A DNA stretch of 64,000 nt from Chloroflexota bacterium (lineage in GTDB: Bacteria > Chloroflexota > Dehalococcoidia > GIF9 > AB-539-J10), in assembly GCA_036834125.1 (NCBI GenBank), contig DAITOK010000001.1, forward strand, positions 57,314 through 121,313, in the 5' to 3' direction. Within the stretch, counting starts at the first letter, position 1, and every line of letters begins with the position of its first letter. Shown here in pieces: positions 5,329 through 64,000 of this stretch. Under the pieces are notes generated by a model. The model searched no databases. It was not told where the DNA came from and was given only the letters and a program-made list of their open reading frames with translations. Both the position numbers and the translations under genes were made by a program.

Positions 5329-5517
5329 CTTGCCCCATCTTTCTGGCTCTGCCTTCTGCAATGATTAATTGTAGAACACTTATTGTGCTGTGAAAAACCA
5401 AAAGTCCTGGGCAAATCAGCGTGATGCCGCAATTGTCAACCTCCCCTGCCTTCTAGTAGGGCTGCGTTTCCAGGGATTACTTTCGTAGCTATAAAGCTCC
5501 TCATAGTGGTATGCGGC

Positions 5518-7251
5518 TTAGTTTTCCGGTGCTACGACTATCAAGACATCACCGGTGTTCACTACCTCGCCCTGGTAGGTAAGTATTTCCTTAACGGTGC
5601 CGCTGTGGGAGGAGACGACCTGGTTCTGCATTTTCATAGCTTCGATTATCAGCAGCGTGTCACCCTGCTTGACTCTGTCACCGACCTTCACCTTGATAGC
5701 GAGTATCATGCCTTGCATCGGTGAAGTGATGGCTCCGGCAGGAAGCTCTTTAGGCTTTTTGGCTTTTTCTTTTTCTACCTCGACAGTCTTGCCCAATACT
5801 GAAGTTACCCTGACGTTGAATACTTCGCCATCTACGTCAACGCTGAATTCCATGGGTAAGTCTAAAGTAGGAATAGCCTTGGCTGCTGCCTCGGTGGGGG
5901 AGGGCATAGCCTCCTCTTTGATTTCGCCACGCAGGAATTTCACCGCTACCTGAGGATAGAGGGCATAAGTGAGGAGGTCTTCTTCGCGATGAATAATGCC
6001 CAGCTTTTGTCCCTCTTTTTTCAGTTTGGGTAATTCCGGTTTGAGAAGGTCGGCGGGTCGAACATCTATAGGCTTCTCTTCACCTATTACTAGTTTTCTT
6101 ACCTCTTCGTTGATTTCGCCTGGTGGTTGTCCGTACTGGCCTAGAAGGTAGTTCCGTACTTCCTGTGTTACTTGTTTGTAGCGGGCTCCTGACAGCACAT
6201 TCAGGACAGCCTGGATGCCCACGATCTGGCTGGTAGGGGTAACCAGCGGCGGATATCCCAGGTCAGCCCTGACGCGGGGCACTTCTTCCAGAACCTGGCT
6301 ATATTTATCAAGAGCATTCTGCTCTCTCAGTTGGCTGACTAGATTAGAGAGCATACCACCGGGTATCTGGTGCAGCAGTACATTGATGCTGGGCCGAGTG
6401 GTCTCGGTGGTAAACAGCGCTTGATATTTCGCACTCAAGCTGGCGAAGTATTCGCCGATCTCATAGAGCAACTCTAAGTCAAGCCCGGTATCGTAAGGGG
6501 TGCCTTTGAAAGCTGCCACAATACTTTCGGTAGGCGGTTGGGAAGTGCCCCAGCTAAGAGCGGAAAAGGCGGTGTCCACGATATCCACTCCAGCCAGAGC
6601 AGCAGCATAGTAGCTTATAGGTGCCATGCCGCTAGAGCAGTGTGAGTGTAAATCCACCGGGACCTTGACTCTACTCTTGATTGCTTTTACGAGCTCTGCT
6701 GCTGCGGGTGGGGAAATCAAACCAGCCATATCCTTGATGCAAATAGAATCGCAACCTAGGCTTTCCAGTTCCCTAGCCATCTCGGCGAACTTTTCTGTGG
6801 TATGCACCGGGCTAGTGGTATAACAGATTGCCCCTTGGACATGAGCTTCATAGTCTTTGGCTACCTGTATAGCTAGCTTCATATTGCGTATGTCGTTAAG
6901 GGCATCGAAGATGCGGAAGACATTTATGCCGTTTTTCACAGAAAGGCGGATAAATTCTCTCAGGACGTCATCCGCATAGTGGCGATAGCCCACGAGGTTC
7001 TGGCCACGGAGCAGCATCTGCAGGCGAGTGTTTTTGACTTTCTCACGCAGACTCCTGAGCCGTTCCCAGGGGTCCTCGTTCAAGAACCTAATGCAGGCGT
7101 CAAAGGTAGCGCCTCCCCATACTTCTAGAGAAAAGAAGCCCACCCTATCAAGCTGTTCGGCGATAGGAAGCATGTCTTTCGTGCGCATCCTGGTGGCGAT
7201 CAGGGATTGGTGAGCATCACGTAAAGTGGTGTCTGTTATTAAAATGCCCAT
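5518..7251 (-). CDS. pycB: Pyruvate carboxylase subunit B (carboxyltransferase TIM barrel plus C-terminal biotinyl domain)
   Basis: The protein has ILITDTTLRDAHQS and a C-terminal EAMKMQN biotin attachment motif; 577 aa. Confidence 0.8.
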   Translation of the reverse strand: MGILITDTTLRDAHQSLIATRMRTKDMLPIAEQLDRVGFFSLEVWGGATFDACIRFLNEDPWERLRSLREKVKNTRLQMLLRGQNLVGYRHYADDVLREFIRLSVKNGINVFRIFDALNDIRNMKLAIQVAKDYEAHVQGAICYTTSPVHTTEKFAEMARELESLGCDSICIKDMAGLISPPAAAELVKAIKSRVKVPVDLHSHCSSGMAPISYYAAALAGVDIVDTAFSALSWGTSQPPTESIVAAFKGTPYDTGLDLELLYEIGEYFASLSAKYQALFTTETTRPSINVLLHQIPGGMLSNLVSQLREQNALDKYSQVLEEVPRVRADLGYPPLVTPTSQIVGIQAVLNVLSGARYKQVTQEVRNYLLGQYGQPPGEINEEVRKLVIGEEKPIDVRPADLLKPELPKLKKEGQKLGIIHREEDLLTYALYPQVAVKFLRGEIKEEAMPSPTEAAAKAIPTLDLPMEFSVDVDGEVFNVRVTSVLGKTVEVEKEKAKKPKELPAGAITSPMQGMILAIKVKVGDRVKQGDTLLIIEAMKMQNQVVSSHSGTVKEILTYQGEVVNTGDVLIVVAPEN

Positions 7252-34583: not shown

Positions 34584-36008
34584 TTAGCCTTTCCAGAAAT
34601 GGGGAGAAAATATCATAAACACGGTAAACAGTTCTAGCCGCCCGAGCCACATGCACGTAATTAAAATGACCTTGGCTGCTGGAGGTAGCCAGGCATAATT
34701 TGAACTAGGACCTACCTCGCCTAAACCCGGTCCGACATTCCCCAAAGTAGCAGCTGTTGCTGAGACGGCTGTCTCCATATTAAGCCCTAGGAAACACAGT
34801 GTTATTGAAGCTATAATAGCCACAAGAATATACAAAAAGAAGAAAGAAATTATATCTCGGACTATTCCTTCAGAAAGAGGCTTTCGGTTGTATTTAAGGG
34901 GAATCACAGCTTTGGGGAAAATGGCTTTCCTCATCATGACTCTTGTATGTTTCATCAAGGTTAAAGCTCGCATCAGCTTTATGCCACCGCCAGTTGAGCC
35001 CCCACAGGCTCCCACGAACATCAAAACCAAAAGCACCATTCTGGCGCCAGATTCCCACGAATTGAAATCTGCTGTGACAAAACCGGTGGTAGTCATGATC
35101 GAGACTGCTTGGAAGATTCCTTGTCTATACAGGTCAGGTCCTTGGGAAAATATTAGCAACGAGATAGTTATTGCTAGGACAATCAAATAAAGCCTGAATT
35201 CGTCATCTTTAATTGCTTTCCAATTTCTCCGTAGAAGATGATAATGGATTATGAAATTTGTGCCTGCCATTAACATAAAGAACATAATAATATATTCAGC
35301 TAAGGGATTGTTATAGGCTCCAATACTTGCCGTAGTAGGAGTAAATCCACCGGTGGAAAGGGTTGAGAGAGAGATGCAAATTGAGTCGAAGAGAGAAAGC
35401 TTGGCTACGAAGTAAAGAAGACCTATTTGAACAGCAGTGAAAACTGCATAGATGCTCCAAAGAAGCCTGGCTGTGGTGCTGAACCTAGGGCGTAATCTTT
35501 CGGGTAATGGTGCTGGAAACTCACGGTCAAAGAGCTGAGAACCTCCTACAGCTAGTCTAGGCAAGATAGCAACAAACAGAACAATTACCCCCATGCCACC
35601 CAGCCATTGCGTAAGGCTACGCCATAATAGAGCACTCTTGGGCAGCTCTTCCACTCTGGTTAGTATGGTTGCTCCAGTGGTCGTGAAGCCAGACATAGAC
35701 TCAAAGAAGGCGTCGAGGAAACTCAGTTTCAAAAATACATAGGGGAGTGTGCCGAGGAAGGAAATGATAAGCCAGGTGAAAGCTACTATGGTGAAACCGT
35801 CAGCACGCTCTATTTCCTTGGTAGTTTTAAATCTGAATTGGAGAATTAAGCTGAGAGCCAAGGTAATCAGTAAAGCGTACAGGTAAGTGTACCACTGCAC
35901 CTCGCCGTAGTGAATAGCCACGCATAAAGGGAGAATATAGGCTAAGGCGAAATATTTTAGGAGCGAGCCAACGATGTGTAGGGTTAACCTTACCCTTTGG
36001 AGAACCAT
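34584..36008 (-). CDS. trkH: TrkH/KtrB family potassium uptake membrane protein
   Basis: A multi-TM protein with repeated selectivity-filter-like GTTGF, STGGF and MTTTGF motifs. Confidence 0.75.
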   Translation of the reverse strand: MVLQRVRLTLHIVGSLLKYFALAYILPLCVAIHYGEVQWYTYLYALLITLALSLILQFRFKTTKEIERADGFTIVAFTWLIISFLGTLPYVFLKLSFLDAFFESMSGFTTTGATILTRVEELPKSALLWRSLTQWLGGMGVIVLFVAILPRLAVGGSQLFDREFPAPLPERLRPRFSTTARLLWSIYAVFTAVQIGLLYFVAKLSLFDSICISLSTLSTGGFTPTTASIGAYNNPLAEYIIMFFMLMAGTNFIIHYHLLRRNWKAIKDDEFRLYLIVLAITISLLIFSQGPDLYRQGIFQAVSIMTTTGFVTADFNSWESGARMVLLVLMFVGACGGSTGGGIKLMRALTLMKHTRVMMRKAIFPKAVIPLKYNRKPLSEGIVRDIISFFFLYILVAIIASITLCFLGLNMETAVSATAATLGNVGPGLGEVGPSSNYAWLPPAAKVILITCMWLGRLELFTVFMIFSPHFWKG

Positions 36009-36646
36009 TTATTCATGAACTCGATCCCCCTTTTAGCCACTTCCCGATTGACAATGAGAGTCAGCCAATCCTTAGGCTTTATCTCCTTGTCGTCACTTAG
36101 AAACTTTTCCCCTCTTTGTACCACGAGGACCTTTACACCGATGGGGGTTGCTAATTCGGACACACTCCGCCCAACGCATCGCATACCCTCTTCAATTTCT
36201 ATTTCAAAAATTTCTGCTCTTTCGAACGAAAGAAAATCCTTTACATAGGGATGCAAGATCATGCGATAGATATGTTTGGCTGCTACCATGTCTGGGTTAA
36301 CCTGTAGATTAATCCCAGCTTGCTTAAATGTTTCGGTGTGCTCTGCCTCATCGACAAGAGAGATCACAGCTTTTACTCCCATTTCCTTAGCCATCATACA
36401 AATCATCAAGTTCTCTGAGTCGTCCCCTGCAGCGGCTACAAAAGCCTGAGCACTTCTGACCCTGGCTTCCTCCAAAGTGGACCTCTGGCTAGCATCTCCC
36501 GTGATAACCATAATATCAGAATCCTCGGCTATCTGAGCGCACTTTGCCGCATCCCGTTCTATGACCGCGACTTCATTTCCTTCCTTGACAAGCAGCTCTG
36601 CTAGATTCTTGCCTATATCACTTAAGCCTGCTATTACAATATACAT
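35990..36646 (-). CDS. trkA: Trk system NAD-binding regulatory protein TrkA/KtrA
   Basis: A Rossmann GLSDIGKNLA motif plus an RCK_C domain; it overlaps trkH by 19 nt. Confidence 0.75.
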   Translation of the reverse strand: MYIVIAGLSDIGKNLAELLVKEGNEVAVIERDAAKCAQIAEDSDIMVITGDASQRSTLEEARVRSAQAFVAAAGDDSENLMICMMAKEMGVKAVISLVDEAEHTETFKQAGINLQVNPDMVAAKHIYRMILHPYVKDFLSFERAEIFEIEIEEGMRCVGRSVSELATPIGVKVLVVQRGEKFLSDDKEIKPKDWLTLIVNREVAKRGIEFMNKWFSKG

Positions 36647-44328: not shown

Positions 44329-44802
44329 TTAAGCATTGGTTCTGGGAGAGAATATGTACACGGTTGCTGTTTTGAGCTTCCGTCTTAGCAAGGCTAATTG
44401 TGGCTTATATAACCTAATTCTTCTTTCTTGGCATACGACAGGCATGTTAAGCATTATTGATATTATTTTCTCCTCTGCGTTTCCTCCGCATATTACGGTT
44501 GCTTCGTTTTGATTTGCTCCCAGCTCTATAAGAATTGGCAACGGCAACGCCTCTTGTTCTTCCGGCTCTAATAGGCTTGCTAAATATTGAAGCTCACTTC
44601 TCTTGAAGAAATGGGTGCTGCCATCATTACATAACACATAGGGATATTGTTCGTTCAATAGAGTTGATAACCGTTTTTGGCTCTGAGGCACCCCAGCATT
44701 TACAACCCTGAGCTCACCTCTTAGGCATTCTTGGAGCATCTTTTCGCAGAGAGATTGTCCCGATTGTGTCTGTGAAGGCTCGTTTTCTAATGGCTTGGGC
44801 AT
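44329..44802 (-). CDS. Hypothetical 157-aa protein co-transcribed at the 3' end of the A-ATPase operon (possibly DUF61/UPF0216-like)
   Basis: It starts 4 nt after the subunit D stop. The suggested resemblance to the archaeal UPF0216 family rests only on the pattern ...LL.EQYPYVL.NDGS.HFFKRSEL.YLASLL, recalled from memory and not verified. Confidence 0.45.
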   Translation of the reverse strand: MPKPLENEPSQTQSGQSLCEKMLQECLRGELRVVNAGVPQSQKRLSTLLNEQYPYVLCNDGSTHFFKRSELQYLASLLEPEEQEALPLPILIELGANQNEATVICGGNAEEKIISIMLNMPVVCQERRIRLYKPQLALLRRKLKTATVYIFSPRTNA

Positions 44803-44806
44803 TGTT

Positions 44807-45442
44807 TTATCCGCGGACGACCAGCACTTTAACGCGTTTCAGCCGTGCTTTCTCTTCTCTATCTCTTTCCTCAAATTTCATATTCAAGTAATTTATCGTC
44901 GCTTGTAACCCTGGGATTATTATATACTCCAGAGCGTTGGTTATCCTTTTCGTCCTATTTATTTCCATAGCTAGTAATTCAAAGTTCCTCTGAAGCTCAG
45001 CCAATTCTACAATGGCTCTCAGACATTCCCCAGATAGCTGCGCAGCATGGTCTAGCCAAGAGGATGTATCAACCGGGTTATACCTTTTCATCCCGCCTTT
45101 GTTGGGACTATCTTGGAGTTCCAAGGATGGTACTCGTACACCGGCTATGCTTCTTGAGCCAGCGGTAATTTTTAGCTCACTCTCAGTAGCTATCAGTTCC
45201 TTGTCCAGTGCTATGTAGCCGTGATATCCAGAGGCAACTGAAAGTGCTTTATAAAGGTTGGAAAATTCGTCCAGCAATTTTCTTTTAGCTTCCACTGTTT
45301 CTCTAGCTGTTTGCAGGAATTCCATAGTCAATATGGAAAGCCTGTCTTTTACGATTTTTTGTATTCTTCGTGCTAGCGAAAGTCGGCGTTTTAGTTTTAT
45401 CAGCTCGATCTTTGTTGGCCTGACTTTGATCAATTCTGGCAT
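44807..45442 (-). CDS. atpD: A/V-type ATP synthase subunit D
   Basis: A coiled-coil protein; MPELIKVRPTKIELIKLKRRL. Confidence 0.8.
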   Translation of the reverse strand: MPELIKVRPTKIELIKLKRRLSLARRIQKIVKDRLSILTMEFLQTARETVEAKRKLLDEFSNLYKALSVASGYHGYIALDKELIATESELKITAGSRSIAGVRVPSLELQDSPNKGGMKRYNPVDTSSWLDHAAQLSGECLRAIVELAELQRNFELLAMEINRTKRITNALEYIIIPGLQATINYLNMKFEERDREEKARLKRVKVLVVRG

Positions 45443-45453
45443 TTTCTTTGCAT

Positions 45454-46857
45454 CTACTGCGCCTTGCGATACTTGGGATGATACTTTTTGATGAACTCTT
45501 CTCTAATTAGCTTCAAATCTTCTTCTGGTAATCTGGAGAATAGCTCCCAGGCTATAGCTAAGGTCTGTTCTACCGTTCTTTTCTCCCATTCGCCTTGAGA
45601 TATGAATCTCCTCTCAAATTCCTCAGCGTTGGTCAAATATATTCTGTCCCTGTCACTCAGTGCCTCAGTACCTATAATGGTAGATATTTCCCGGAGATAA
45701 CACCCTTCAGCGTAAGCAGCATAAGATTGCATAAAAACGTTGTTGTGGTCTTCTCTGGTTTTGCCAGGACCAATCCCTTCTCGCATCATTCGGGAGAGGG
45801 ATAGAAATACGTCTATAGGGGGGTATATACCTTTCCTTTCCAAGTTTCGGGAAAGAACAATCTGCCCCTCGGTTATATAGCCAGTTAGGTCAGGTATGGG
45901 ATGTGTTATATCATCGTCTGGCATGGTCAAAATAGGCATTACAGTTACAGACCCCTCTTTACCAAAAATTCTGCCAGCTCTTTCGTACATTGTAGCGAGG
46001 TCAGTGTACATATAACCGGGATATCCTCTTCGGGATGGTATCTCTTCACGCATGGAAGAAAGTTCGCGGAGAGCTTCACAATAGTTGGTCATATCGGTAA
46101 GAATGACGAGGACGTGCATGTTCTGTTTCCAGGCTAGATATTCGGCTGCGGTTAAAGCTAATCTGGGCGTTGATATTCGCTCAATAACCGGGTCCGATGC
46201 AGTGTTGATGAAAGCCACAGTTCTCTCTAATGCACCTGTCCTCTCCAGGCTCTTCATAAAAAAGGAGGCATCATCATAGCTGATACCAATAGCAGCAAAT
46301 ACCAGAGCAAATCTTTCCTGTTTTCCCTTTACAGTTGCCTGTCTGATGATTTGAGCGGCAATTCGGTTATGAGGCAACCCTGAGCCACTGAATATGGGCA
46401 ACTTTTGTCCCCTGACCAGCGCATTCAAGCCGTCTATTGCCGAGATTCCTGTTTCAATAAATTCGGCAGGTGGCTGACGAAGTGCAGGGTTTATAGGTTC
46501 ACCGTTAATATCCAGGTAATCTTCGGGAATTACTGGCGGACCTCCATCTATTGGCTCTCCCAGACCATTGAATATCCTTCCTAGGACATCAATAGACACT
46601 GGCAACTTCAAGGTTTCGCCTTTGCATCTTATCTTGCTTCCGATAAGATCCACTTCACTGACGCCACCGAATACTTCGATTATGGTGGCTTCCGCACTGA
46701 TGTCTATGGCTTGGCCGCTTTTTATCTCGCCGTTGGCAAGTTGAACCTCAACCATCTCATTAAATTTTATGCCGGGTATGCTCTCAGCTACCAGCAGAGC
46801 CCCTTTAGCCTTGCTAATTGCTTTTCCTTCTTTAACATAAAGTGAGGATAAGTCCAT
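45454..46857 (-). CDS. atpB: A/V-type ATP synthase subunit B (non-catalytic)
   Basis: A 467-aa protein with a degenerate P-loop region and an [13 protein letters not shown] motif. Confidence 0.85.
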
Positions 46858-46967: not shown

Positions 46968-48713
46968 TTAGCGCTTAGGACTCACCATAATGCGTTCCAT
47001 CTCAGCCCACAATTCCTTAACTTTTTGTTCAAATACATCGTTGGGTATCTCTTTTATCCTGGATATTCTATAGACTATTGGTGATGAACGGATGCTCTCA
47101 ATGCTTGCCCCAGAATTTAGCATTTCTTGAGCTAGCTCGTAGAATTTCAGGATAGTTTTGAGCATGAGTCCGGCTTTCGCTGGCACGCAATAAGTATCAA
47201 CTTCGTGATAGGCACTTTGCTGGAGAAAGTCTTCGCGAATCATCCGGGCAATAAGAAGCAGTAATTTGTCTCTGTCAGGTAGAGCTTCGGGTCCTACGAG
47301 TCTGACAATTTCTTGTAGCTCTGCCTCCTGCTGCAAGATTTTCAAGGCGTTAGCTCTGGTATTCTCCCATCCCGGGTCATGTTTATTCCACCAATTTTTA
47401 ACAGCATCCACATAAAGGCTATAGCTGGTAAGCCAGTTTATGGCTGGGAAATGTCTCTTGTTCGCTAGCGAGACATCCAGAGCATAGAAAGCATCTATTA
47501 TCCTGAGCGTGTTTTGTGTTACCGGTTCACTGAAGTCAGCTCCCGGTGGGCTTACGGCGCCGGCTACCGTTACTGAGCCCTTTCTTTGTGGATTACCTAA
47601 ACATTCCACCATCCCGGCTCTTTCGTAGAAAGACGAAAGCCGAGAACCCATGTAGGAAGGAAAACCTTCCTCTCCAGGCATCTCTTCCAATCTCCCGCTC
47701 ATCTCCCTCATGGCTTCTGCCCATCGTGAAGTAGAATCAGCAACTACCAAAACGTTGTAACCCATGTCCCGGAAATACTCAGCCATGGTGATGCCGACAA
47801 ATATGCTTGCTTCCCTGGCCACCACAGGCATATTAGAAGTGTTAGCTATAAAGATTTCTTTCTCTTGTAGCAATCTTCCAGTGTTGGGATCCTTGAGTTC
47901 TCTAAAGCTATAAAGCACATCAGCCATCTCATTGCCCCGTTCGCCGCAACCAACGTAGATGTTCAGGTGTGTTTGAGCCCACCTAGCTAGCTGTTGCAAA
48001 GCTACGGTCTTCCCGGTGCCAAAGCCTCCGGGTATTGAGGCCTTGCCTCCAAGAGCCAAGGGGAACATATAATCCAAAATTCGCATGCCAGTAGTAAGCA
48101 GACCGGCCGGGTCAAACCTTTGCTTGTAAGGTCGGGGTTTCCTTACTGGCCACTTCTGCATCATCGTGAGTTCTTTTACTTCGCCATTATGCTCTACTAA
48201 AGCTATAGGCTCCTCGACAGTGTAATTGCCTTGTCGTATCTCTTTTATCCTGCCCTTGACTCCCGCTGGCACCATTATCCGATGCTCTATAAGGTGGGTT
48301 TCGGGTACTACGCCTATTATGTCCCCATGGCTAACAACGTCCCCGACTTTCACTTTGGGTACAAACTGCCATTTCTTGTTGCGAGGGAGAGCCAAGGCTT
48401 TGGCGCCTCGCTTTATAAATGGGCCAATATTCTCGCCTAGGGTGAGTAAAGATTTTTGTAGCCCATCGTAAATAGAACCTACAAGCCCAGGTCCGAGCTC
48501 GACACTCAGTACTTGTTCTGTTCTTCTCACAATCTCCCCAACTTTCAGCCCTTGAGTATCTTCGTGTGCCTGAATTATCGCCTTGTTGCCTTCCAGTCCT
48601 ACTATCTCCCCTACAAGTCCCTCTTCACCTATCTCGACAACTTCATAAACCTGGGACCCCAGCATGTCGTCAGCGATAACCAGAGGGCCGGAAACTCTCC
48701 ATATTTTGCCCAT
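46968..48713 (-). CDS. atpA: A/V-type ATP synthase catalytic subunit A
   Basis: A 581-aa protein with Walker A GGFGTGKTV and no intein. Confidence 0.85.
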   Translation of the reverse strand: MGKIWRVSGPLVIADDMLGSQVYEVVEIGEEGLVGEIVGLEGNKAIIQAHEDTQGLKVGEIVRRTEQVLSVELGPGLVGSIYDGLQKSLLTLGENIGPFIKRGAKALALPRNKKWQFVPKVKVGDVVSHGDIIGVVPETHLIEHRIMVPAGVKGRIKEIRQGNYTVEEPIALVEHNGEVKELTMMQKWPVRKPRPYKQRFDPAGLLTTGMRILDYMFPLALGGKASIPGGFGTGKTVALQQLARWAQTHLNIYVGCGERGNEMADVLYSFRELKDPNTGRLLQEKEIFIANTSNMPVVAREASIFVGITMAEYFRDMGYNVLVVADSTSRWAEAMREMSGRLEEMPGEEGFPSYMGSRLSSFYERAGMVECLGNPQRKGSVTVAGAVSPPGADFSEPVTQNTLRIIDAFYALDVSLANKRHFPAINWLTSYSLYVDAVKNWWNKHDPGWENTRANALKILQQEAELQEIVRLVGPEALPDRDKLLLLIARMIREDFLQQSAYHEVDTYCVPAKAGLMLKTILKFYELAQEMLNSGASIESIRSSPIVYRISRIKEIPNDVFEQKVKELWAEMERIMVSPKR

Positions 48714-48762: not shown

Positions 48763-49116
48763 TCAAATTTCCACTTCAAATCCAATGGATTCTCGGATAA
48801 GCCTTCTGTAGTATTTTCTGACATCTGGATATTTTGTGCCAGACTTGGACGGAACCTCTACAATTATCGGAGTTATCCCTTTTCTTTTCCTGACCGCGTT
48901 CATGAGGTCTTCAACATACTGGGCATAATCTTCTGACATGATCACTATGCCCACATCGGGTTCGCCTAACAGCTCGGTCATGACTCTCCTGACATCGTCA
49001 CGGATGTCATGACCGCTTTTTATGGTGTAATATTTACTGATGCCGGCTAGCCTTAGTGCGTTGACTAGTTCTTCATCTCCTATTACAGCTATATCTAGGC
49101 GTTTAATGGGTATCAT
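48763..49116 (-). CDS. atpF: A/V-type ATP synthase subunit F
   Basis: A 117-aa protein starting IAVIGDEELVNALRLAGI. Confidence 0.75.
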   Translation of the reverse strand: MIPIKRLDIAVIGDEELVNALRLAGISKYYTIKSGHDIRDDVRRVMTELLGEPDVGIVIMSEDYAQYVEDLMNAVRKRKGITPIIVEVPSKSGTKYPDVRKYYRRLIRESIGFEVEI

Positions 49117-49117
49117 G

Positions 49118-50152
49118 TCACAATACCAAAAAGTTCTTTACTTCTTGGACGGGAACTCCATCCATGATGGCTTTTAGAATCAGCCTCAAGTTGCGTATTT
49201 CGACCTCTTTGAGAACTAAATACCAAGCCATCACCAGTGGGGACAACACTTTTGGTGACAGCAATTCCTTGAGCATCCTGAACTTATGCTTATCAATGAC
49301 TTCATCTACTACTGTGATGCTTCTAGTCTTATCATAGTTTGCTGATACTTCATTTGCTATGTCCCGATATTGGCTATCTTCCAACTTCGCAGGTACGTCA
49401 GCGATTTTGAGGTTGATCAAATCTTTAATACTTTTGTCTGTAAGCCTATAGCCGCCGGCGATAGTCATTTCAGCAACATCGGGTCCTATGCCCTCAATTA
49501 TCGCCCTTAGGACAATTTGCAGGTTTGTTAGGTCTATCACTAAGCCGAAGGCTTTGGCCAACACAAAGCCGTCTTTTATTTTTCTAGCCATGTTTAGCAT
49601 GCTTTTATAATACTCGCTAGCCAGCTTGACTTCGGTAAGAAATTTCACCTTTGCACTTTTGCCTGCTTTGTATTCCTCAATAGCAGGTGTATAATCTCCT
49701 AGTTTGCACCTGACGAGTATTTGGGCGATATCGTATATATTTTCGGCTTTGGAGAGTTCGTCTAGCAGTCCGTGGTTGTAAATAACACCGACCGGTATCA
49801 TACGGGCTTTCTTGCCAGTTGCCATGTTTTGTAGGGCAGCTTTAATATTTGTGACGTCGTACTTCACCATGTATGCTCTAGATAGTTTTAGTATGTCTTT
49901 GGGCAAGAATTTAAATGATTCTACATAGTTAATACGTTGCCTGAGATAACGCCACAACGATTCATCCAGTTCATCAAAAGTTTTGACAGGTAATTCCTCT
50001 AGGAAGCTTCCAATATAGGTTTCTCTGATAACTGCCAGCGCATCCTGAAAGGTGGATGCTGATGCCATCCTATCTATGTGTTCGAGGGTGACAGTTCTGG
50101 GTTCTTCCCCTTTCAAGCAAGCAGATATAAAAGCGTATCTTGGGTTGAGCAC
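49118..50152 (-). CDS. atpC: A/V-type ATP synthase subunit C (d)
   Basis: 344 aa, at the expected operon position between E and F. Confidence 0.7.
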   Translation of the reverse strand: MLNPRYAFISACLKGEEPRTVTLEHIDRMASASTFQDALAVIRETYIGSFLEELPVKTFDELDESLWRYLRQRINYVESFKFLPKDILKLSRAYMVKYDVTNIKAALQNMATGKKARMIPVGVIYNHGLLDELSKAENIYDIAQILVRCKLGDYTPAIEEYKAGKSAKVKFLTEVKLASEYYKSMLNMARKIKDGFVLAKAFGLVIDLTNLQIVLRAIIEGIGPDVAEMTIAGGYRLTDKSIKDLINLKIADVPAKLEDSQYRDIANEVSANYDKTRSITVVDEVIDKHKFRMLKELLSPKVLSPLVMAWYLVLKEVEIRNLRLILKAIMDGVPVQEVKNFLVL

Positions 50153-50161
50153 AACATTACC

Positions 50162-50743
50162 TTACTGAGCCTCAAAAAGTTTCTTACTAATGTCTGGCAG
50201 CAATTTGGGTAACAAGGTTTCCAGTCTGGTCTCGTAGGTGTTATCTATTCTGAGCTTTCCCTCGACGTCTTCGACCACCGCCCCTCCCAGGCAATTGGAT
50301 TCCCTGACCTCCACCACCTTTGCGGACAATTCTCTATCCTCTGCAATGAGCTTTTTTGCCGTGTTTAGATCTTTCGGGGAAACATAGACTCTGGCTTTAC
50401 TCACGCCCAGAGCATTCAAACCCTCTTTGATCAAATTTGCAAGCTGATTTTCGTCAGTGGTAACTTGTGACAAATCCTTGCGCGCTCCGTCAATTATCTT
50501 GGCAATTGCCGCTGCCTTGGCACTTGATAGCTGTTGTCGCGCTTGGATAGAAGCTTGAGCCAAAATTCGAGATGCTTCCTCTTCTGCTTCTTTGACCATT
50601 CTACTGCGCTCTTCCGCGAACCTTGCCTCTCTCTGTCTCTTGGCTTTCTCTTTTTCCTCTCGTGTCTTCTCTTCTGCTTCTTCTATGATGCTCTGGGCTT
50701 CTGCTCTTACTTTATTCAAAACAGCTTGGCTTATTCTTTCCAT
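50162..50743 (-). CDS. atpE: A/V-type ATP synthase subunit E
   Basis: 193 aa, with a charged coiled-coil N-terminus. Confidence 0.75.
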   Translation of the reverse strand: MERISQAVLNKVRAEAQSIIEEAEEKTREEKEKAKRQREARFAEERSRMVKEAEEEASRILAQASIQARQQLSSAKAAAIAKIIDGARKDLSQVTTDENQLANLIKEGLNALGVSKARVYVSPKDLNTAKKLIAEDRELSAKVVEVRESNCLGGAVVEDVEGKLRIDNTYETRLETLLPKLLPDISKKLFEAQ

Positions 50744-50756
50744 TTTCAGTATGCTC

Positions 50757-51218
50757 CTAGAAAAGTCCCAGCAAAACCAACACCAGCACGGTGAACACTA
50801 TACCAAGTATACCCCATAGTTCCACAAGCACAGCTAATATCATGGTCGTCGTTAGTAATTTCCCTTTCGTTTTGGGCAAAAGAGAGATGCCTGAAGCACA
50901 AATGATGCCCTGATAGGCTGCCGAGAAACCCTCAGCCGCTGCCACGAAGATACCGCAACCCAGCACAGCTAGCCCGTCACCCATGCTAGCAACCTTGGGC
51001 AATACCTGGATGATGATAAGTATGAGAATTATGAGCCCGTAGAAGGTCTGTGTCATAGGCAAAGACGATAGGAGAATAACGTTTCTAAACTGTCCTGGCT
51101 CCTCTGCCAGTGTGCCAGCCCCTGCTGATGCTGCCATGCCGACGCCTATGGCAGAGCCAGCCATACCACCAGCCAATCCTATGGCTCCACCAAGAATTGC
51201 TAACGCTGTTGGCTCCAT
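50757..51218 (-). CDS. atpK: A/V-type ATP synthase proteolipid subunit K: 16-kDa, four-helix (duplicated hairpin) c subunit with an NtpK-like Na+-binding signature
   Basis: Hairpin 1, helix 2 reads SLPMTQTFYG (Q, not E/D, at the carboxylate position). Helix 3 has AAYQGII, and hairpin 2, helix 4 has AVLVELWGILG (E present). Confidence 0.8.
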   Translation of the reverse strand: MEPTALAILGGAIGLAGGMAGSAIGVGMAASAGAGTLAEEPGQFRNVILLSSLPMTQTFYGLIILILIIIQVLPKVASMGDGLAVLGCGIFVAAAEGFSAAYQGIICASGISLLPKTKGKLLTTTMILAVLVELWGILGIVFTVLVLVLLGLF

Positions 51219-51236: not shown

Positions 51237-53270
51237 CTAAGATTTTACTTTGACAAACACAGGTCGAGTCTTCAACCGGAACGGACTGTATTCCCTGCCG
51301 CCACCTTCGTAAAATTTCAGGAGGAATTCCACAAAGCACAGCCTGAGAGAGTGAACAAAGCAAGAGATGCCGCTGAGAGCGGCATTGATTATGTGCCCAA
51401 TTAGCACAATCAGTGCCGCCAGCATTGGACCTGTTACTTCGCGAATTGCCTCCGGCATCAAATCGGGCAATATTTTAGACATCAGGTTGAAGGAGAAGGC
51501 AAGGTAATAGGTAGCTAAACCCACCCCTGCCAACCGACAGTATGACATAACATCTCCTAAGATGCCTGTTACTTCGGACAACGAGAAAATTCCTCCTAGG
51601 AGAAAACCGTTCATCTTCAGATAGGAGGCAATAATTAAGATTAAGCCGGCACCGGCAGTACATAACAGCGGGATGGGATATGCTTGCTCTGGTAATATGG
51701 AAATATCTACATGAAGGAGATAGTGTATGACCAAGGGTATTGCACCAATTTCAAGCAGGAACAGACCGAGTTTACTTACCACTGTTCCTTTACTGCCTGC
51801 TTTCGCTCCCTTAATGAGCGTCAATATGTGTGCTATGTTCACGTGAATCAAGCCTATCAATATTGAGATGACTATAAATTGAATAGGATTTCCCAGTAGT
51901 GATTCAATCCGACTAGCAAGGGCTAAGCTTTCGATCCCAAAACGCTGGAAGAACTTCCCGAAATAACTGCCTTGGACGAAATTGCCGAAATAGCTGCCTG
52001 TGAGCAAGCCAAAAATAAGCCCAACCACGCCACTGATGTAGAGCATTCTTTGGAATAGTTTAAATCCTTCGGTTTCGGGGTCATCAACGAATTTCTTCAA
52101 ACCGCGATTAGCAAATAGCAGCAGTATGGCCGAATAGGCTACATCGTTCATCATAAGTCCGAAAAAGAACGGGAAAGAATAAGATATGAGAGGCGTAGGG
52201 TCCCACTCCCAATACCTCGGGATGCCGAACAGCTTTACCACGACCTGGAATGGTCGGAAGGCACGGAAATTCCTAAATTTGGTGGGAGGCTCTTCAACCG
52301 CTTGCGGTTTCTGAGTATCAGTGAACACGTAATTCACCTTTTCTTTAACTTCGGAAATCGTATCCTCAACATTAGCCTCGGGAATCCAACCTTCGATTAG
52401 CGTAACATATTTCGCTTCACTAGCTTTGGCTAAAACTGCTAGCCGTTCTGTTTCGGCAGATAACGCCTCACGGAAAAGAACTAGTGTCTTCAGGTTCTCT
52501 CTAGTCCTGTTTTCAATCTCGCTCTGAAGTTTTGCCAGTTCTTCTTCAAAACTGCGAATATTACTGCTAGCTGTTTCGAGGAATTCTCTCAGAGTTACAT
52601 CCTTTTCTGGTATCTGCAAGGCTCTGCCTCCACCATCCCTGACTATGGACTCTATTTTTTCTCGGTCGTGAACTTTGGCAATAACATACAAAACGCTCTC
52701 GTTTTCTACTGTTACCACAATGTGCTCAAGTAGATGCTCTCTAAATTTAGGGTAAATGGTTTCAAATGACTCACGGGGAAATACAAAAACGTGAGAAAAT
52801 AGGTAATCTCCGGAAAAACTCAAATCTCTTAGTCTAATATCAGCAATGTCAGCTTGTTGCCTAAGAGGGTGAAGATATGTGCTTAGTTCTGTAAGTTTCT
52901 TGCTATTCTCTCTCAGTTTGACAGCTATTTGATGCATTTTGCTGAGCTTGGTGCACAGTACTCTCACTTCGCTATCAATTTCATCGAGAGGTTTAGCATA
53001 TACCACTTCAACATCCTGTCCCAAGGAAATTATTTTTTCCCCTTTAGGGACGTAAGCTAATACATCGTTAATGCTGGCTAGTAATTCAGCAACCCTTTTT
53101 CTTTCCTGTTCAAGGGCTTCTTTCTCAACAGGTTTTAATTCCTGGCTTTCCTCAACGTGAAGCACACCCGCAGTGTGCAGAGTTTTTAGAGTTTCAGCGG
53201 AGCGATCCTTGGCGACCATTATCCTGACTTTGACCATAGGGTCGGGTGTGTTGATGATCAAGGGTACCAT
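51237..53270 (-). CDS. atpI: A/V-type ATP synthase subunit I (a)
   Basis: A 677-aa protein with a cytoplasmic N-terminal half and a multi-TM C-terminal half. Confidence 0.8.
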   Translation of the reverse strand: MVPLIINTPDPMVKVRIMVAKDRSAETLKTLHTAGVLHVEESQELKPVEKEALEQERKRVAELLASINDVLAYVPKGEKIISLGQDVEVVYAKPLDEIDSEVRVLCTKLSKMHQIAVKLRENSKKLTELSTYLHPLRQQADIADIRLRDLSFSGDYLFSHVFVFPRESFETIYPKFREHLLEHIVVTVENESVLYVIAKVHDREKIESIVRDGGGRALQIPEKDVTLREFLETASSNIRSFEEELAKLQSEIENRTRENLKTLVLFREALSAETERLAVLAKASEAKYVTLIEGWIPEANVEDTISEVKEKVNYVFTDTQKPQAVEEPPTKFRNFRAFRPFQVVVKLFGIPRYWEWDPTPLISYSFPFFFGLMMNDVAYSAILLLFANRGLKKFVDDPETEGFKLFQRMLYISGVVGLIFGLLTGSYFGNFVQGSYFGKFFQRFGIESLALASRIESLLGNPIQFIVISILIGLIHVNIAHILTLIKGAKAGSKGTVVSKLGLFLLEIGAIPLVIHYLLHVDISILPEQAYPIPLLCTAGAGLILIIASYLKMNGFLLGGIFSLSEVTGILGDVMSYCRLAGVGLATYYLAFSFNLMSKILPDLMPEAIREVTGPMLAALIVLIGHIINAALSGISCFVHSLRLCFVEFLLKFYEGGGREYSPFRLKTRPVFVKVKS

Positions 53271-53275
53271 GTCAG

Positions 53276-53587
53276 TCAGCTTCGCCCTGTGACAATGTTC
53301 ACTACGAGCTCGGTGAGTTCTCTTACTTTTTTATCAGCGTTGATGCTGATTTCGGCAGCTTTTCTTTCGGAGTCTTTAATTTTTCTCTCCGCTTCTGCCC
53401 TGGCTTGGTTTATAATCCTGTCACACTCAGCTTTTACTTCGTCGAGAGAGAGCTGAGAAGAAAGTATTTTCTTAGCTTCTTCCTTAGCTTCGAGAAGAAT
53501 TTCGCTGGCTCTCGCCTTTGCTTCTGAGAGGATCTTTTCAGCTTCAGCTTCGAGAGCTTCTATATTACTGGTGATGTCTTTGGCCAT
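53276..53587 (-). CDS. atpH: A/V-type ATP synthase subunit H (archaeal AhaH-like; bacterial subunit G)
   Basis: A 103-aa charged coiled coil, first gene of the operon. Confidence 0.6.
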   Translation of the reverse strand: MAKDITSNIEALEAEAEKILSEAKARASEILLEAKEEAKKILSSQLSLDEVKAECDRIINQARAEAERKIKDSERKAAEISINADKKVRELTELVVNIVTGRS

Positions 53588-54513: not shown

Positions 54514-55612
54514 ATGCAAGAAGAAAAGGGAAGTCTAGAAGCTTTGCTCCGGCAAATCTCAGAAGTGATGGTGCGTCTTTGACATCGCCGGCAAAGAACA
54601 AGAGATAGTCAAGGCAGAGGCGGAGTCAGCGGAACCTGATTTCTGGCGCGACACGATCAGAGCTCAGGCTATCATGCGGGAGCTCCGGGGTAAGAAAGAC
54701 CTGGTCAGTGCCTGGCGAGACCTCGAAAAGAAAGCCAGAGAGCTTCAAGAAATGATTGCTCTGGCTATCAAGGAGGAGGACTCTTCTCTTGAGGAAGAGA
54801 TACAACAGGAACTGAGGAAGCTGCAATCTCGGTTTCAAGAACTGGAGAGTCAGCAGCTTTTCACCGGAGATTACGATAATCGGAAAGCCATGCTGGCTCT
54901 TCATGCTGGTGCTGGGGGCACAGAGTCTCAAGACTGGGCGAACATGTTGCTGAGGATGTACCTGAGGTGGGCAGAAAGGCACGGTTACGAAGCAGAGGTA
55001 TTGGATGTCTCTCTCGGTGAAGAGGCTGGTATCAAAAGTGCCATCGTAGAGATAAAAGGGGATTACGCTTACGGCTATCTCAAGGGCGAGCACGGAGTGC
55101 ACAGGCTGGTGAGGCTTTCGCCATTCGATGCTGATCACGCGCGGCATACCTCTTTTGCTCTGGTGGAGGTTCTTCCTGAAGCGGAAGGGACGATGGATAT
55201 CAAAATAAACCCGGAAGACCTAAAAATAGAGACTTTCCGGTCCAGTGGTCCTGGCGGACAGCATATGCAGAAGACAAGTAGCGCTGTGAGAATAACGCAT
55301 TTGCCTACCGGGCTGGTAGCGGCTTGCCAAAGTCAGCGTTCCCAGCACCAAAACAAGGAAGCTGCGTTGAAAGTTCTTTATTCTCGCCTGCTGGAGCTGG
55401 AGCGTAAGAAGAGGGAGGAAGAAAAGGCTAGGTTAAAAGGTGAGCGTATCGAAGCAGCCTGGGGAAACCAAATCCGGAGTTACGTTCTTCATCCGTATAA
55501 GATGGTCAAAGACCACCGCACTGATTACGAAGTTCACGATGCAGAAGCCGTGTTGGATGGGGAACTGGATGGTTTCATCAGTGCCTATCTTCGGTCCCAG
55601 GTGGGGAAATGA
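54514..55612 (+). CDS. prfB: Peptide chain release factor 2, expressed via a programmed +1 ribosomal frameshift at CTT TGA C (54577-54583)
   Basis: ORF1 is ATG 54514 ... CTT (54577-79) TGA (54580-82). Shifting +1 to GAC gives DIAGKEQEIVKAEAESAEPDFWRD, joining ORF 54674..55612, which carries SPF and GGQ motifs. A GGTG lies just upstream of CTT. Confidence 0.85.
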
Positions 55613-63328: not shown

Positions 63329-64000
63329 TGGTTAGGCAGAAGACGATGCCGCTTTTCGACCTACCTGAGGAACAAGCTGTGCCTCAGGCTGCACCTCTAG
63401 CGGCGAGGATGCGACCGCGCATATTTGACGAGTTCGTGGGGCAAGAGCACTTAGTTGCTAGAGGACGGGTCTTTCGCAAATGTATTGAGGCTGACCAGTT
63501 GCCCTCCATGATTTTTTGGGGACCACCAGGCAGTGGCAAGACCACTCTGGCTTATCTTATCGCCAATGTTACCCAAGCCGAGTTCAGTCCTCTGAGCGCC
63601 GTGAGTGCTGGCGTGGCAGATTTGCGCCGCGTTGTCAGGGAGGCTAAGAAGAGGCTTAAATCCACAGGGCAAAGAACCATTCTCTTTGTTGACGAAGTGC
63701 ACCGCTTTAACAAAGCACAGCAGGATGCTGTCCTTCCCTTCGTCGAAGATGGCACAATCACCTTTATCGGAGCTACCACAGAAAATCCTTCCTTCGAAGT
63801 TATCTCGCCACTGCTTTCCCGCTGCCGTGTATTCCGCTTGAATTTACTCAGTGACGAAGAGGTCAGGCTTATTGTGGAAAGGGCTATTAGGGATCGGGAG
63901 AGAGGACTGGGGAAATTGCAGCTCAAGATAAGCGAGGAAGCTCTGCGTCACCTTGTGACCATGTCCAACGGGGATGCCCGGGTGACGTTGAACGCCCTGG
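63328..64000 (+). CDS. rarA: Replication-associated recombination protein A (AAA+ ATPase RarA/MgsA), 3' partial at the window end
   Basis: Walker A GPPGSGKTT, Walker B ILFVDEVHRF and sensor 1 GATTENP. The ORF runs off the window end and has no stop, so it is absent from the ORF track. Confidence 0.75.
   Translation, partial: MVRQKTMPLFDLPEEQAVPQAAPLAARMRPRIFDEFVGQEHLVARGRVFRKCIEADQLPSMIFWGPPGSGKTTLAYLIANVTQAEFSPLSAVSAGVADLRRVVREAKKRLKSTGQRTILFVDEVHRFNKAQQDAVLPFVEDGTITFIGATTENPSFEVISPLLSRCRVFRLNLLSDEEVRLIVERAIRDRERGLGKLQLKISEEALRHLVTMSNGDARVTLNAL

Follow-up and report, generated by a model that had tools for sequence, protein, structure and literature searches.

Positions 50757 to 51218 encode subunit K, the c/proteolipid subunit of a complete A1AO/V-type rotary ATPase of a dehalococcoidial (Chloroflexota) bacterium, and we are fairly confident that the evidence as a whole is best explained by a Na+ rotor of the Enterococcus hirae NtpK type, with one ion site in each K and a ring mechanism. 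K fits soundly into a known class and is ordinary within it: four helices with a single NtpK-type site are the usual state of the family, and the finding leaves the understanding of rotor mechanism unchanged. If the Na+ reading is correct, members of a large and mostly uncultured assemblage of Dehalococcoidia from the subsurface and sediments would run their membrane energetics on Na+ via an archaeal-type rotary ATPase. This would bear on energy conservation in low-energy fermenters or acetogens. The few known hosts of A1AO enzymes with V-type c subunits would also gain a bacterial lineage; this class was recently shown to synthesize ATP at an unusually low driving force (PMC9171764).

Subunit K and its operon

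The gene lies in a 64-kb window, the whole stretch of DNA that was analyzed, within the following set of genes.

53276..53587, minus strand: subunit H (G-like peripheral stalk), 103 aa; weak Pfam matches to V-ATPase_G_2 and ATP-synt_B, below the curated cut-off
51237..53270, minus strand: subunit I (a, stator), 677 aa; Pfam V_ATPase_I
51534-51536, minus strand: R579 in the SYCRL motif of subunit I, aligned with the Arg of SYTRL in E. hirae NtpI
51342-51344, minus strand: R643, second conserved Arg of subunit I
50757..51218, minus strand: subunit K (c/proteolipid), 153 aa; open reading frame with ATG start, and its translation
51102-51212, 50994-51098, 50868-50984, and 50772-50855, minus strand: helices 1, 2, 3, and 4 of K in the AlphaFold2 model
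50162..50743, minus strand: subunit E (peripheral stalk); Pfam vATP-synt_E, E 2e-26
49118..50152, minus strand: subunit C (d/AC39), rotor socket on the K ring; Pfam vATP-synt_AC39, E 2e-46
48763..49116, minus strand: subunit F (central stalk); Pfam ATP-synt_F, E 1e-18
46968..48713, minus strand: catalytic subunit A, 581 aa; Pfam domains
45454..46857, minus strand: subunit B (non-catalytic); Pfam ATP-synt_ab and ATP-synt_VA_C
44807..45442, minus strand: subunit D (central stalk); Pfam ATP-synt_D, E 2e-49
44329..44802, minus strand: DUF61/UPF0216 protein, 157 aa, conserved tenth gene of the operon; Pfam PF01886, E 2e-30

K is a duplicated-hairpin (V-type) four-helix proteolipid of an archaeal-type A1AO/V-type rotary ATPase. 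An AAGGAG Shine-Dalgarno sequence, located directly past the stop codon of subunit I, precedes its start codon by about 11 nt. Pfam ATP-synt_C (PF00137) matched K twice (E 2e-17), a hydropathy scan found four hydrophobic segments, and an AlphaFold2 model (pLDDT 93.7) placed helices at residues 3-39, 41-75, 79-117, and 122-149. The two halves of the protein align with each other (BLASTP E 1e-5; score reached in 5 of 1000 shuffles; shuffle z of 3.9). Thus, the open reading frame and the four-helix, duplicated-hairpin architecture proposed in the first-pass annotation are borne out. Its figure of 16 kDa is too high, the calculated mass being 15.3 kDa.

NtpK (PDB 2BL2), the subunit of the K10 ring of the V-type Na+-ATPase of E. 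hirae, is both the best sequence match and the best fold match of K. It is likewise a four-helix duplicated hairpin, with 156 residues to the 153 of K, and was recovered by phmmer against the PDB with an E value of 3e-14 and 36% identity. In a Foldseek search of the PDB with the K model, the top match was 2bl2_A (TM 0.83, rmsd 1.8 Å over 146 columns), and the first 45 matches were rotary-ATPase c/K subunits without exception.

The operon is complete, with K between I and E. Its order, H-I-K-E-C-F-A-B-D, is supported by Pfam and kept in 80 related loci, in which subunit H is a conserved first gene, and is the archaeal aha/atp order. The relationships of the other subunits are mixed. The best PDB sequence match of subunit I was 8wci_P, the E. 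hirae "V-type sodium ATPase subunit I" (E 4.9e-39, compared with 7.5e-26 for Thermus thermophilus), which makes E. hirae NtpI its closest solved match. The catalytic head is nearer to archaeal A-type enzymes than to that of E. hirae: the best solved relative of subunit A was the A subunit of an A-type ATP synthase (1vdz/3i4l, presumably from Pyrococcus horikoshii), with 763 bits, followed by T. thermophilus with 655 and E. hirae with 637.

The putative Na+ site

K was compared with NtpK, with the T. thermophilus subunit, and with database relatives. The positions that bear on ion binding are as follows.

51048..51062, minus strand: helix 2 motif L53-P54-M55-T56-Q57, from the alignments with NtpK and with LPET of T. 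thermophilus; L53 is the equivalent of the backbone oxygen ligand
51039..51041, minus strand: Y60, equivalent of NtpK Y68 by alignment; invariant among homologues
50931..50933, minus strand: E96, membrane-buried Glu on helix 3, from conservation in homologues
50910..50912, minus strand: Q103 on helix 3, equivalent of the Na+ ligand NtpK Q110 by alignment; invariant
50820..50822, minus strand: E133 on helix 4, equivalent of NtpK E139 (principal Na+ ligand) by the alignments; invariant

When K was aligned with NtpK, L53, T56, Q57, Q103, and E133 fell on L61, T64, Q65, Q110, and E139, and Y60 fell on Y68, which is hydrogen-bonded to the site Glu in NtpK. The five NtpK residues are its Na+ ligands, L61 through its carbonyl oxygen (list from PMC2359735). 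The sequence strings quoted in the first-pass annotation are all present, SLPMTQTFYG at residues 52-61, AAYQGII at 100-106, and LVELWG at 131-136, and the NtpK-like ligand set that it proposed stands, with all five residues aligning one to one and the overall fold matching. This similarity covers sequence register and overall fold, and Na+ binding itself is what we infer.

The register of helix 2 differs from the original reading, in which a Gln was said to occupy the position where c subunits have Glu or Asp. That position is M55, the x of L-P-x-T-Q. M55 lies opposite the Glu of T. thermophilus LPET, E133 falls on it when the two halves of K are aligned, and the multi-hairpin relatives repeat L-P-E-T-Q with the Glu at M55, confirming the register. 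Judged by these alignments, M55 marks the ancestral position of the helix 2 Glu, whose carboxylate has been lost. E133 is the sole carboxylate of K at the canonical coupling position. The half alignment also places Q103 on V26 and T56/Q57 on L134/W135; because M55, V26, and L134/W135 occupy its ligand positions, the second potential site in K is fully hydrophobic. In NtpK the position of the lost carboxylate is Gly rather than Met, and helix 4 reads E-T-Y where K has E-L-W; the ligand set and the Tyr are identical.

Two other types of subunit show what has changed. Subunit L/K of the T. thermophilus V/A-ATPase (PDB 6QUM and 8YY1) is also a PF00137 protein, and its L-P-E-T aligns with L-P-M-T of K, but it is a single hairpin of two helices with one Glu per hairpin, and where K has Q57 and Y60 it has Leu and Phe. 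The T. thermophilus enzyme is H+-coupled and has a 12-mer ring. Multi-hairpin K proteins, which were among the top-scoring relatives in an exhaustive search, include the Methanopyrus kandleri type with 13 hairpins and the triplicated forms of methanogens; they share the outer L-P-x-T-Q...Y and inner S-A-x-x-Q-G motifs with K (PMC2359735). However, nearly every hairpin in them has the Glu (L-P-E-T-Q), giving one site per two helices; half of the sites have been lost in the K described here.

The ligand positions are strictly conserved. L53, T56, Q57, Q103, E133, and Y60 were unchanged in the 120 closest homologues. A genome scan for K relatives with the Chloroflexota alignment recovered at least 231 species-level genomes, and the Na+-ligand equivalents and Y60 were unchanged in the best 80, which were the ones examined. 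More broadly, the NtpK ligand set was nearly universal among 91 diverse four-helix K clusters. An alignment of 22 sequences from Chloroflexota and archaeal relatives, with a mean column identity of 48%, had 11 invariant columns, and seven of these were L53, P54, T56, Q57, Y60, Q103, and E133, far beyond chance. Because the NtpK ligand set is strictly conserved, Na+ coupling, as the first-pass annotation had proposed, is the best reading of K and is well supported at the level of sequence. The similarity of subunit I to E. hirae NtpI, with the Arg aligned, lends this reading further support.

A rotor that is H+-coupled in vivo, or promiscuous for H+ and Na+, despite its NtpK-like residues seems to us quite improbable. 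Sequence cannot prove the choice between Na+ and H+, as all c-rings that have been studied are intrinsically H+-selective to some degree and need a large excess of Na+ in order to use it (PMC3692424). Most homologues are labeled "H+-transporting" in the source databases, but these names are automatic and carry no evidential weight. Against H+ coupling, the five ligands and the Tyr are all present and invariant, whereas the H+-coupled T. thermophilus subunit has Leu and Phe at the positions of Q57 and Y60. Furthermore, the E. hirae ring, which has an identical ligand set, hardly distinguishes H+ from Na+ and runs on Na+, which wins at its physiological excess (PMC2359735, PMC3692424).

On the preferred Na+ reading, K would be a fused double hairpin in which only the second hairpin keeps the coupling Glu, E133, and the first has M55 instead. 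The carbonyl of L53 together with T56 and Q57 on helix 2 and Q103 on helix 3 would complete one NtpK-type site per K and hence one Na+ per four helices. The K ring would carry the Na+ bound to E133 through the lipid phase, R579 at the interface with subunit I would displace it into a half-channel, and rotation of the ring would be coupled via subunits C, D, and F to the A3B3 head. Such an enzyme should be reversible, with a Na+/ATP ratio equal to one third of the K copy number of the ring.

Direction of the enzyme in the cell

The direction of the enzyme, ATP synthesis or hydrolysis, is not readable from K. The first-pass annotation had taken the halved ion:ATP ratio as the mark of an ATP-driven pump, unusual for a synthase. 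This step is unsupported because the ion:ATP ratio is set by how many copies of K make up the ring: the K10 ring of E. hirae gives 10/3, or 3.3, Na+ per ATP (3.2 was measured) in a fully reversible enzyme (PMC12018189). Nor does a V-type c subunit point away from synthesis. Archaeal A1AO enzymes of this kind are held to be the ATP synthases of their cells because the hosts make ATP by respiration, and the A1AO enzyme of the bacterium Eubacterium callanderi, which has such a c subunit and is Na+-coupled, was shown to make ATP at 90-150 mV (PMC9171764).

Other considerations incline us, by a small degree, to the view that the enzyme is mostly an ATP-driven Na+ pump that energizes the membrane; its place as the principal rotary ATPase of a cell in an apparently fermentative lineage is a guess. 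One reason for the lean is that some Dehalococcoidia are reported to have only a V-type enzyme, without F-type ATPase and Nuo, and are read as dependent on substrate-level phosphorylation (bioRxiv 2021.08.23.457424). Another comes from the gene content of the window, which includes genes for ADP-forming acyl-CoA synthetase-like and acyl-CoA dehydrogenase proteins and lacks any ion-pumping respiratory complex. A paired Na+-translocating system, which the first-pass annotation had suggested looking for, did not turn up: the window and the 10 kb on either side contained no genes for Na+-pumping respiratory or decarboxylase systems (no Rnf, Nqr, OadB, or Mtr) and none for an F-type ATPase.

A PYC_OADA-domain protein at 5518-7251, which adjoins a biotin carboxylase at 3844-5361, was considered as a Na+-pumping decarboxylase and rejected, as it is without an OadB partner; it is read as part of an ATP-dependent two-subunit carboxylase. 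The E. hirae ntp operon includes ntpJ, a KtrB-like K+ transporter gene. No such gene is present inside the operon described here; a TrkH/TrkA pair lies at 34584-36646, about 8 kb from the operon, with unrelated genes between.

A Na+-driven enzyme that is the primary ATP synthase of the cell, on the model of Pyrococcus, Thermococcus, and E. callanderi, is a possibility that we take seriously while holding it somewhat doubtful. In such an enzyme, the single-site K would lower the Na+/ATP ratio to suit a low phosphorylation potential rather than serve pumping. The enzymes of these three groups likewise combine an archaeal-type operon and A subunit with a four-helix, one-site c subunit, and they have been biochemically characterized, whereas the one described here is predicted from its genes. 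The closest characterized bacterial analogue, that of E. callanderi, is an ATP synthase in a bacterium, Na+-dependent and presumably acquired by lateral transfer (PMC9171764), and here too the host is bacterial. The similarity of subunit A to 1vdz/3i4l, the H-I-K-E-C-F-A-B-D gene order, and the fact that the nearest relatives of K outside the Chloroflexota are from Thermoproteota/Desulfurococcales archaea all favor a synthase, although those archaea are not Thermococcales. The lack of an F-type enzyme in some Dehalococcoidia also fits. Weighing on the other side are the lack of Na+-pumping partners in the sequence covered and the reading of V-type-only genomes without Nuo as users of substrate-level phosphorylation. 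The covered part of the genome amounts to about 84 kb of a 158-kb contig, so that the rest of the genome may hold Rnf, a Na+-pyrophosphatase, or an F-type operon, which tempers the lean toward a pump.

Clade-specific features: E96 and the DUF61 gene

The first-pass annotation had stated that only helix 4 carries a Glu. This holds for the canonical position, which E133 alone occupies, but helix 3 has a second buried Glu, E96. By helical periodicity E96, seven residues ahead of Q103, lies on the same face as S99 and Q103, about two helical turns (about 10 Å) from the level of the ligands. It was invariant in the 120 nearest homologues and was also present in archaeal relatives. In the best 80 of the at least 231 species-level genomes, residue 96 was Glu in 72, Gln in 5, and Phe in 3. 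NtpK has Gly (Gly103) at the equivalent position, as do the majority of the other four-helix K proteins of the 91 clusters. Judged from these homologues, E96 is specific to the clade and off the canonical ion-coupling position. As a second obligatory ion-coupling carboxylate it was rejected, being off-register in the half alignment and replaced by Gln or Phe in 8 of the 80 genomes.

E96 could nevertheless modify the Na+ site. The E96-S99-Q103 polar stripe might make K a variant rotor, with a two-carboxylate or second-shell site that might change how tightly or selectively it binds ions or how it responds to pH, but we consider this unlikely. Its invariance in the nearest homologues, its presence in archaea, and its i/i+7 relation to Q103 would suit such a role. 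The Gln found in five genomes would suit it as well, consistent with the argument made for Fusobacterium nucleatum that a constitutively protonated Glu behaves like Gln (PMC3692424). The F-type c11 ring of F. nucleatum, which is relevant here to E96 only, also has, in a c subunit of the Na+ type, an additional Glu buried on the inner helix. However, its subunit is a single hairpin rather than a four-helix double hairpin, and the extra Glu of its two-carboxylate E32/E65 site replaces the ligand Gln, whereas K keeps Q103 and has E96 seven residues away (PMC3692424). The distance of E96 from the Gln position, the Phe in three genomes, which implies that the carboxylate is dispensable, and the Gly at this position in most four-helix K proteins all speak against the variant rotor.

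The same features would figure in a broader proposal, to which we give little credence: that K belongs to a laterally spread clade with a distinct rotor variant, in which an E-x-x-S-x-x-x-Q ladder beneath the Na+ site tunes ion affinity or pH response, and in which the DUF61 protein is a previously unrecognized accessory subunit, assembly factor, or regulatory factor of A-type ATPases. This K type is found in at least 231 species-level genomes, the best 80 of which are mostly Dehalococcoidia metagenome-assembled genomes (MAGs). The clade occurs in Dehalococcoidia, Thermoproteota/Desulfurococcales, some Thermodesulfobacteriota, and one Opitutales MAG.

The DUF61 protein has four invariant Cys residues. 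Its AlphaFold model was poor (pLDDT 54.7), a PDB sequence search with it gave a match at chance level only, and a literature search found no paper tying DUF61 or UPF0216 to ATPases. The E. hirae ntp gene order ends with ntpH/ntpJ; in the dehalococcoidial host the operon ends with DUF61 instead, beginning 4 nt past the atpD stop codon. A DUF61 gene was also directly 3' of the gene for subunit D in 45 of the 50 related loci whose sequence extends as far as D; two archaeal ones, L035 and L049, are among the 45.

The K subunit and its operon

A single ORF with an ATG start (window 50757-51218, minus strand) encodes K, a protein of 153 amino acids with a calculated mass of 15.3 kDa. The start codon is preceded, at a distance of about 11 nt, by an AAGGAG ribosome-binding site that directly follows the stop codon of the upstream gene. 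K ranks third among ten genes clustered on the minus strand, nine of which Pfam identified as V/A-type ATPase subunits, H on the basis of weak matches below the curated cut-off.

Genes of the ATPase cluster
53276-53587, minus, subunit H (weak Pfam match, below the curated cut-off)
51237-53270, minus, subunit I (Pfam V/A-type ATPase subunit)
50757-51218, minus, subunit K (Pfam V/A-type ATPase subunit)
50162-50743, minus, subunit E (Pfam V/A-type ATPase subunit)
49118-50152, minus, subunit C (Pfam V/A-type ATPase subunit)
48763-49116, minus, subunit F (Pfam V/A-type ATPase subunit)
46968-48713, minus, subunit A (Pfam V/A-type ATPase subunit)
45454-46857, minus, subunit B (Pfam V/A-type ATPase subunit)
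44807-45442, minus, subunit D (Pfam V/A-type ATPase subunit)
44329-44802, minus, DUF61 (tenth cluster gene)

Bacterial genes (ribosomal protein S16, RF2, RuvABC, sigma-70, DnaG, and Ffh) flank the operon, and the closest species-level genomes in a scan for the K gene were MAGs of Dehalococcoidales, Dehalococcoidia, and Chloroflexota. A metagenomic contig of 158 kb encodes an identical K protein.

A hydropathy scan of K revealed four hydrophobic segments, with Lys and Arg concentrated in the 1-2 and 3-4 loops, a distribution that fits an N-out/C-out topology. The AlphaFold2 model (pLDDT 93.7, from 54 homologues) has helices at residues 3-39, 41-75 (with a kink at P54), 79-117, and 122-149. When the model was compared with the PDB in Foldseek, the top match was NtpK, the rotor subunit of Enterococcus hirae (2bl2_A; TM 0.83, rmsd 1.8 Å, 146 columns), and matches 2 to 45 were rotary-ATPase c subunits without exception. 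Pfam found ATP-synt_C twice in K, and the two halves align to each other (BLASTP E value of 1e-5, a score reached by 5 of 1,000 shuffles). Thus, K has the four transmembrane helices proposed in the first-pass annotation rather than two. At the level of sequence, K has all the marks of a V-type K subunit in the duplicated form that carries an NtpK-type site, and its operon those of the archaeal type.

A single putative ion site and a second glutamate

NtpK was also the best match to K among all PDB sequences (phmmer E value of 3e-14, 36% identity). In the phmmer alignment, L53, T56, Q57, Q103, and E133 of K fall exactly on L61, T64, Q65, Q110, and E139 of NtpK, the Na+ ligands of the NtpK structure listed by Mulkidjanian et al. 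2008 (PMC2359735); Y60 is paired with Y68. The proposed ligands therefore do superimpose, and the three strings on which the proposal was based are all present in K. Neither the five ligands nor the Tyr vary among the 120 closest database homologues or among the K genes of 80 species-level genomes. Only 11 columns are invariant in a 22-sequence alignment that extends to archaeal relatives (36-52% identity), and seven of these are L53, P54, T56, Q57, Y60, Q103, and E133. When 1.84 billion cluster representatives were searched exhaustively with HMMER and 91 full-length four-helix ones were compared, nearly all of the 91 had the pattern L-P-x-T-Q...Y...Q...E. This alignment and conservation of the full ligand set support the interpretation as a putative Na+ site. 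The set is real and selected, yet it is the family norm and not a rarity.

The first-pass annotation placed the Gln of helix 2 where c subunits normally have Glu. However, three independent alignments agree that the Glu-equivalent position is the x of L-P-x-T-Q, Met55. The single-hairpin subunit of Thermus thermophilus has L-P-E-T opposite L-P-M-T of K; between the halves of K, M55 pairs with E133, V26 with Q103, and T56/Q57 with L134/W135; and multi-hairpin relatives from the exhaustive search repeat L-P-E-T-Q-x-x-Y, hairpin after hairpin. By this register, the outer helix of the ancestral hairpin gives its Glu to its own site and its Thr-Gln to the neighboring site. Helix 2 of K has lost the Glu and retained Thr-Gln, and helix 4 has retained the Glu and lost Pro, Thr, and Gln (V-E-L-W). 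These losses would leave exactly one complete ion site per K subunit, the second potential site being wholly hydrophobic.

The highest scores in the exhaustive search went to giant multi-hairpin K proteins, all from outside the window: P0121 (1,042 aa), P0122 (784 aa), and P0129 (608 aa). P0121, with one LPQTQ, ten LPETQ, and a terminal IPETY in its roughly 13 hairpins, resembles the 13-hairpin rotor of Methanopyrus kandleri. Several forms of 300-470 aa have an N-terminal extension and three to four hairpins.

The statement that only helix 4 carries a Glu is not literally true because helix 3 has E96 (codon 50931-50933, minus strand). This membrane-buried residue lies seven residues ahead of Q103, on the same helical face as Q103 and the invariant S99. 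All of the 120 closest homologues have E96, as do the archaea whose K proteins are nearest (Zestosphaera, Thermoprotei, and Thermoproteota MAGs); NtpK and the majority of other four-helix K proteins have Gly instead. E96 is specific to, and conserved within, a Chloroflexota/Thermoproteota clade. Of the 80 species genomes, 72 have E at this position, 5 have Q, and 3 have F, and a carboxylate is therefore preferred but dispensable. A role for E96 as a second coupling site was rejected because of these eight replacements and because the residue lies off the canonical register. The Q replacements would fit a protonated Glu that acts like Gln, as does the extra Glu of the Fusobacterium nucleatum c-ring (PMC3692424). 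Overall, the first-pass annotation was largely borne out in its helices, strings, and ligands, and requires correction in its helix 2 register and sole Glu.

Coupling ion and direction

The analysis established the identity of the enzyme, the fold, the ligand set, and the operon. By analogy with the family, each K would hold one Na+ among helices 2, 3, and 4 at E133, the K ring would turn against subunit I, whose R579 would strip the ion into a half-channel, and torque would travel via C, D, and F to A3B3. The closest PDB match to subunit I was the E. hirae "V-type sodium ATPase subunit I" (8wci_P; E value of 4.9e-39, versus 7.5e-26 for the T. thermophilus counterpart), and R579 (S-Y-C-R-L) aligns with the Arg of E. 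hirae S-Y-T-R-L. Coupling of the rotor to Na+ is probable from its sequence. The E. hirae ring with the same ligand set is nearly nonselective for Na+ versus H+ (PMC3692424), and thus Na+ would be used when it is in large excess.

The first-pass annotation proposed a halved ion:ATP stoichiometry, indicative of a pump rather than a primary synthase. Halving is true only if the helix number of the ring is fixed. E. hirae K10, the sole counted ring of this kind, gives 10/3 = 3.3 Na+/ATP (measured, 3.2), and the enzyme makes ATP reversibly (PMC12018189). In work on the bacterium Eubacterium callanderi, Litty and Müller purified an A1AO enzyme that has a V-type c subunit and carried out Na+-coupled ATP synthesis at 90-150 mV, a threshold below that of F-type enzymes (PMC9171764). 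They reason that, since the archaea with c subunits of this type make ATP by respiration, the archaeal enzymes must be ATP synthases (PMC9171764). The pump inference is thus not supported, and the K subunit gives no indication of direction.

Genomic context provides weak hints. A preprint describes some Dehalococcoidia as having a V-type ATPase alone, with neither F-type nor Nuo genes, and as probably dependent on substrate-level phosphorylation (bioRxiv 2021.08.23.457424). The window contains two ADP-forming acyl-CoA synthetase-like genes, acyl-CoA dehydrogenases, PPDK, and genes for amino acid and peptide uptake; no Rnf, Nqr, OadB, or F-type genes were found in it or within 10 kb to either side. 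For the main role in vivo, we lean slightly toward Na+ extrusion at the expense of ATP over Na+-driven ATP synthesis, a preference that a whole-genome check could easily reverse.

A biotin carboxylase gene adjoins one for a 577-aa HMGL-like/PYC_OADA/biotinyl protein (3844-7251, minus strand) with a domain set resembling OadA. Because it has a biotin carboxylase partner and no OadB gene accompanies it, the protein was interpreted as part of a two-subunit ATP-dependent (pyruvate) carboxylase, and a Na+-pumping decarboxylase was rejected. Outside the window, the same contig carries a PhoU_div gene with a PHO4/PiT phosphate transporter (locus L083, 12639-14280) and an 887-aa P-type cation ATPase (Cation_ATPase_N/C; locus L084, 12702-15365). 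The transporter might use a Na+ gradient, a circumstantial suggestion because PiT transporters are often Na+ coupled. The E. hirae ntp operon carries the KtrB-like ntpJ; unlike it, the cluster here has no ntpJ-like gene. A Ktr/Trk-type pair for K+ uptake, made up of a TrkH-family and a TrkA_N gene (34584-36646, minus strand), is located outside the operon, on the same strand and about 8 kb away, and a Na+/K+ link with the ATPase is conceivable.

Archaeal relatives and the DUF61 gene

The best solved relative of the catalytic A subunit was an A-type ATP synthase A subunit (1vdz/3i4l, presumably from Pyrococcus horikoshii; 763 bits), ahead of those of Thermus (655 bits) and E. hirae (637 bits). 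Beyond Chloroflexota, the closest K relatives (58-64% identity, same operon order) were from Thermoproteota/Desulfurococcales archaea and a few MAGs of Thermodesulfobacteriota ("Deltaproteobacteria") and Opitutales. The K clade and operon are patchy, at loci L035, L038, L049, L054, L055, L057, L064, L065, L067, L078, and L082, whose hosts are Thermoproteota/Desulfurococcales, Thermodesulfobacteriota, one Pseudomonadota-labelled MAG, and one Opitutales MAG. This patchiness suggests that the whole operon moved laterally between archaea and bacteria. The enzyme is best described as a laterally spread archaeal-type A1AO ATPase with a V-type c subunit.

The DUF61/UPF0216 gene (44329-44802, minus strand) begins 4 nt past the atpD stop codon, and it follows atpD in 45 of the 50 related loci that reach D, including L035 and L049 of Thermoproteota/Desulfurococcales and the Deltaproteobacteria MAG loci L055 and L065. 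Its product has four invariant Cys (C26, C58, C105, and C124) and may be an accessory or assembly factor. A PDB sequence search found no solved relative, and the AF2 model was poor (pLDDT 54.7). V-type ATPases in Dehalococcoidia were already noted (bioRxiv 2021.08.23.457424), and good descriptions exist of four-helix c subunits that have a single site and Na+ motifs (PMC2359735, PMC9171764). The only elements for which we found no description in the literature were the clade-specific E96 and the place of DUF61/UPF0216 after atpD; nor did we find literature linking DUF61/UPF0216 to ATPases.

A CetZ-like tubulin gene (PF00091 and CetZ_C; L083, 14487-15665) lies on the same 158-kb bacterial contig, about 4 kb past position 64000, where the window ends. 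CetZ proteins form a cytoskeletal family of archaea, and this would be a further archaeal-type gene besides the ATPase operon and DUF61. In prfB (RF2; 54514-55612, plus strand), a short frame-0 ORF runs from the ATG at 54514 to CTT TGA C (shift site, 54577-54583), and the +1 frame continues into a 312-aa PCRF/RF-1 ORF; this programmed +1 frameshift is a classical, ordinary feature.
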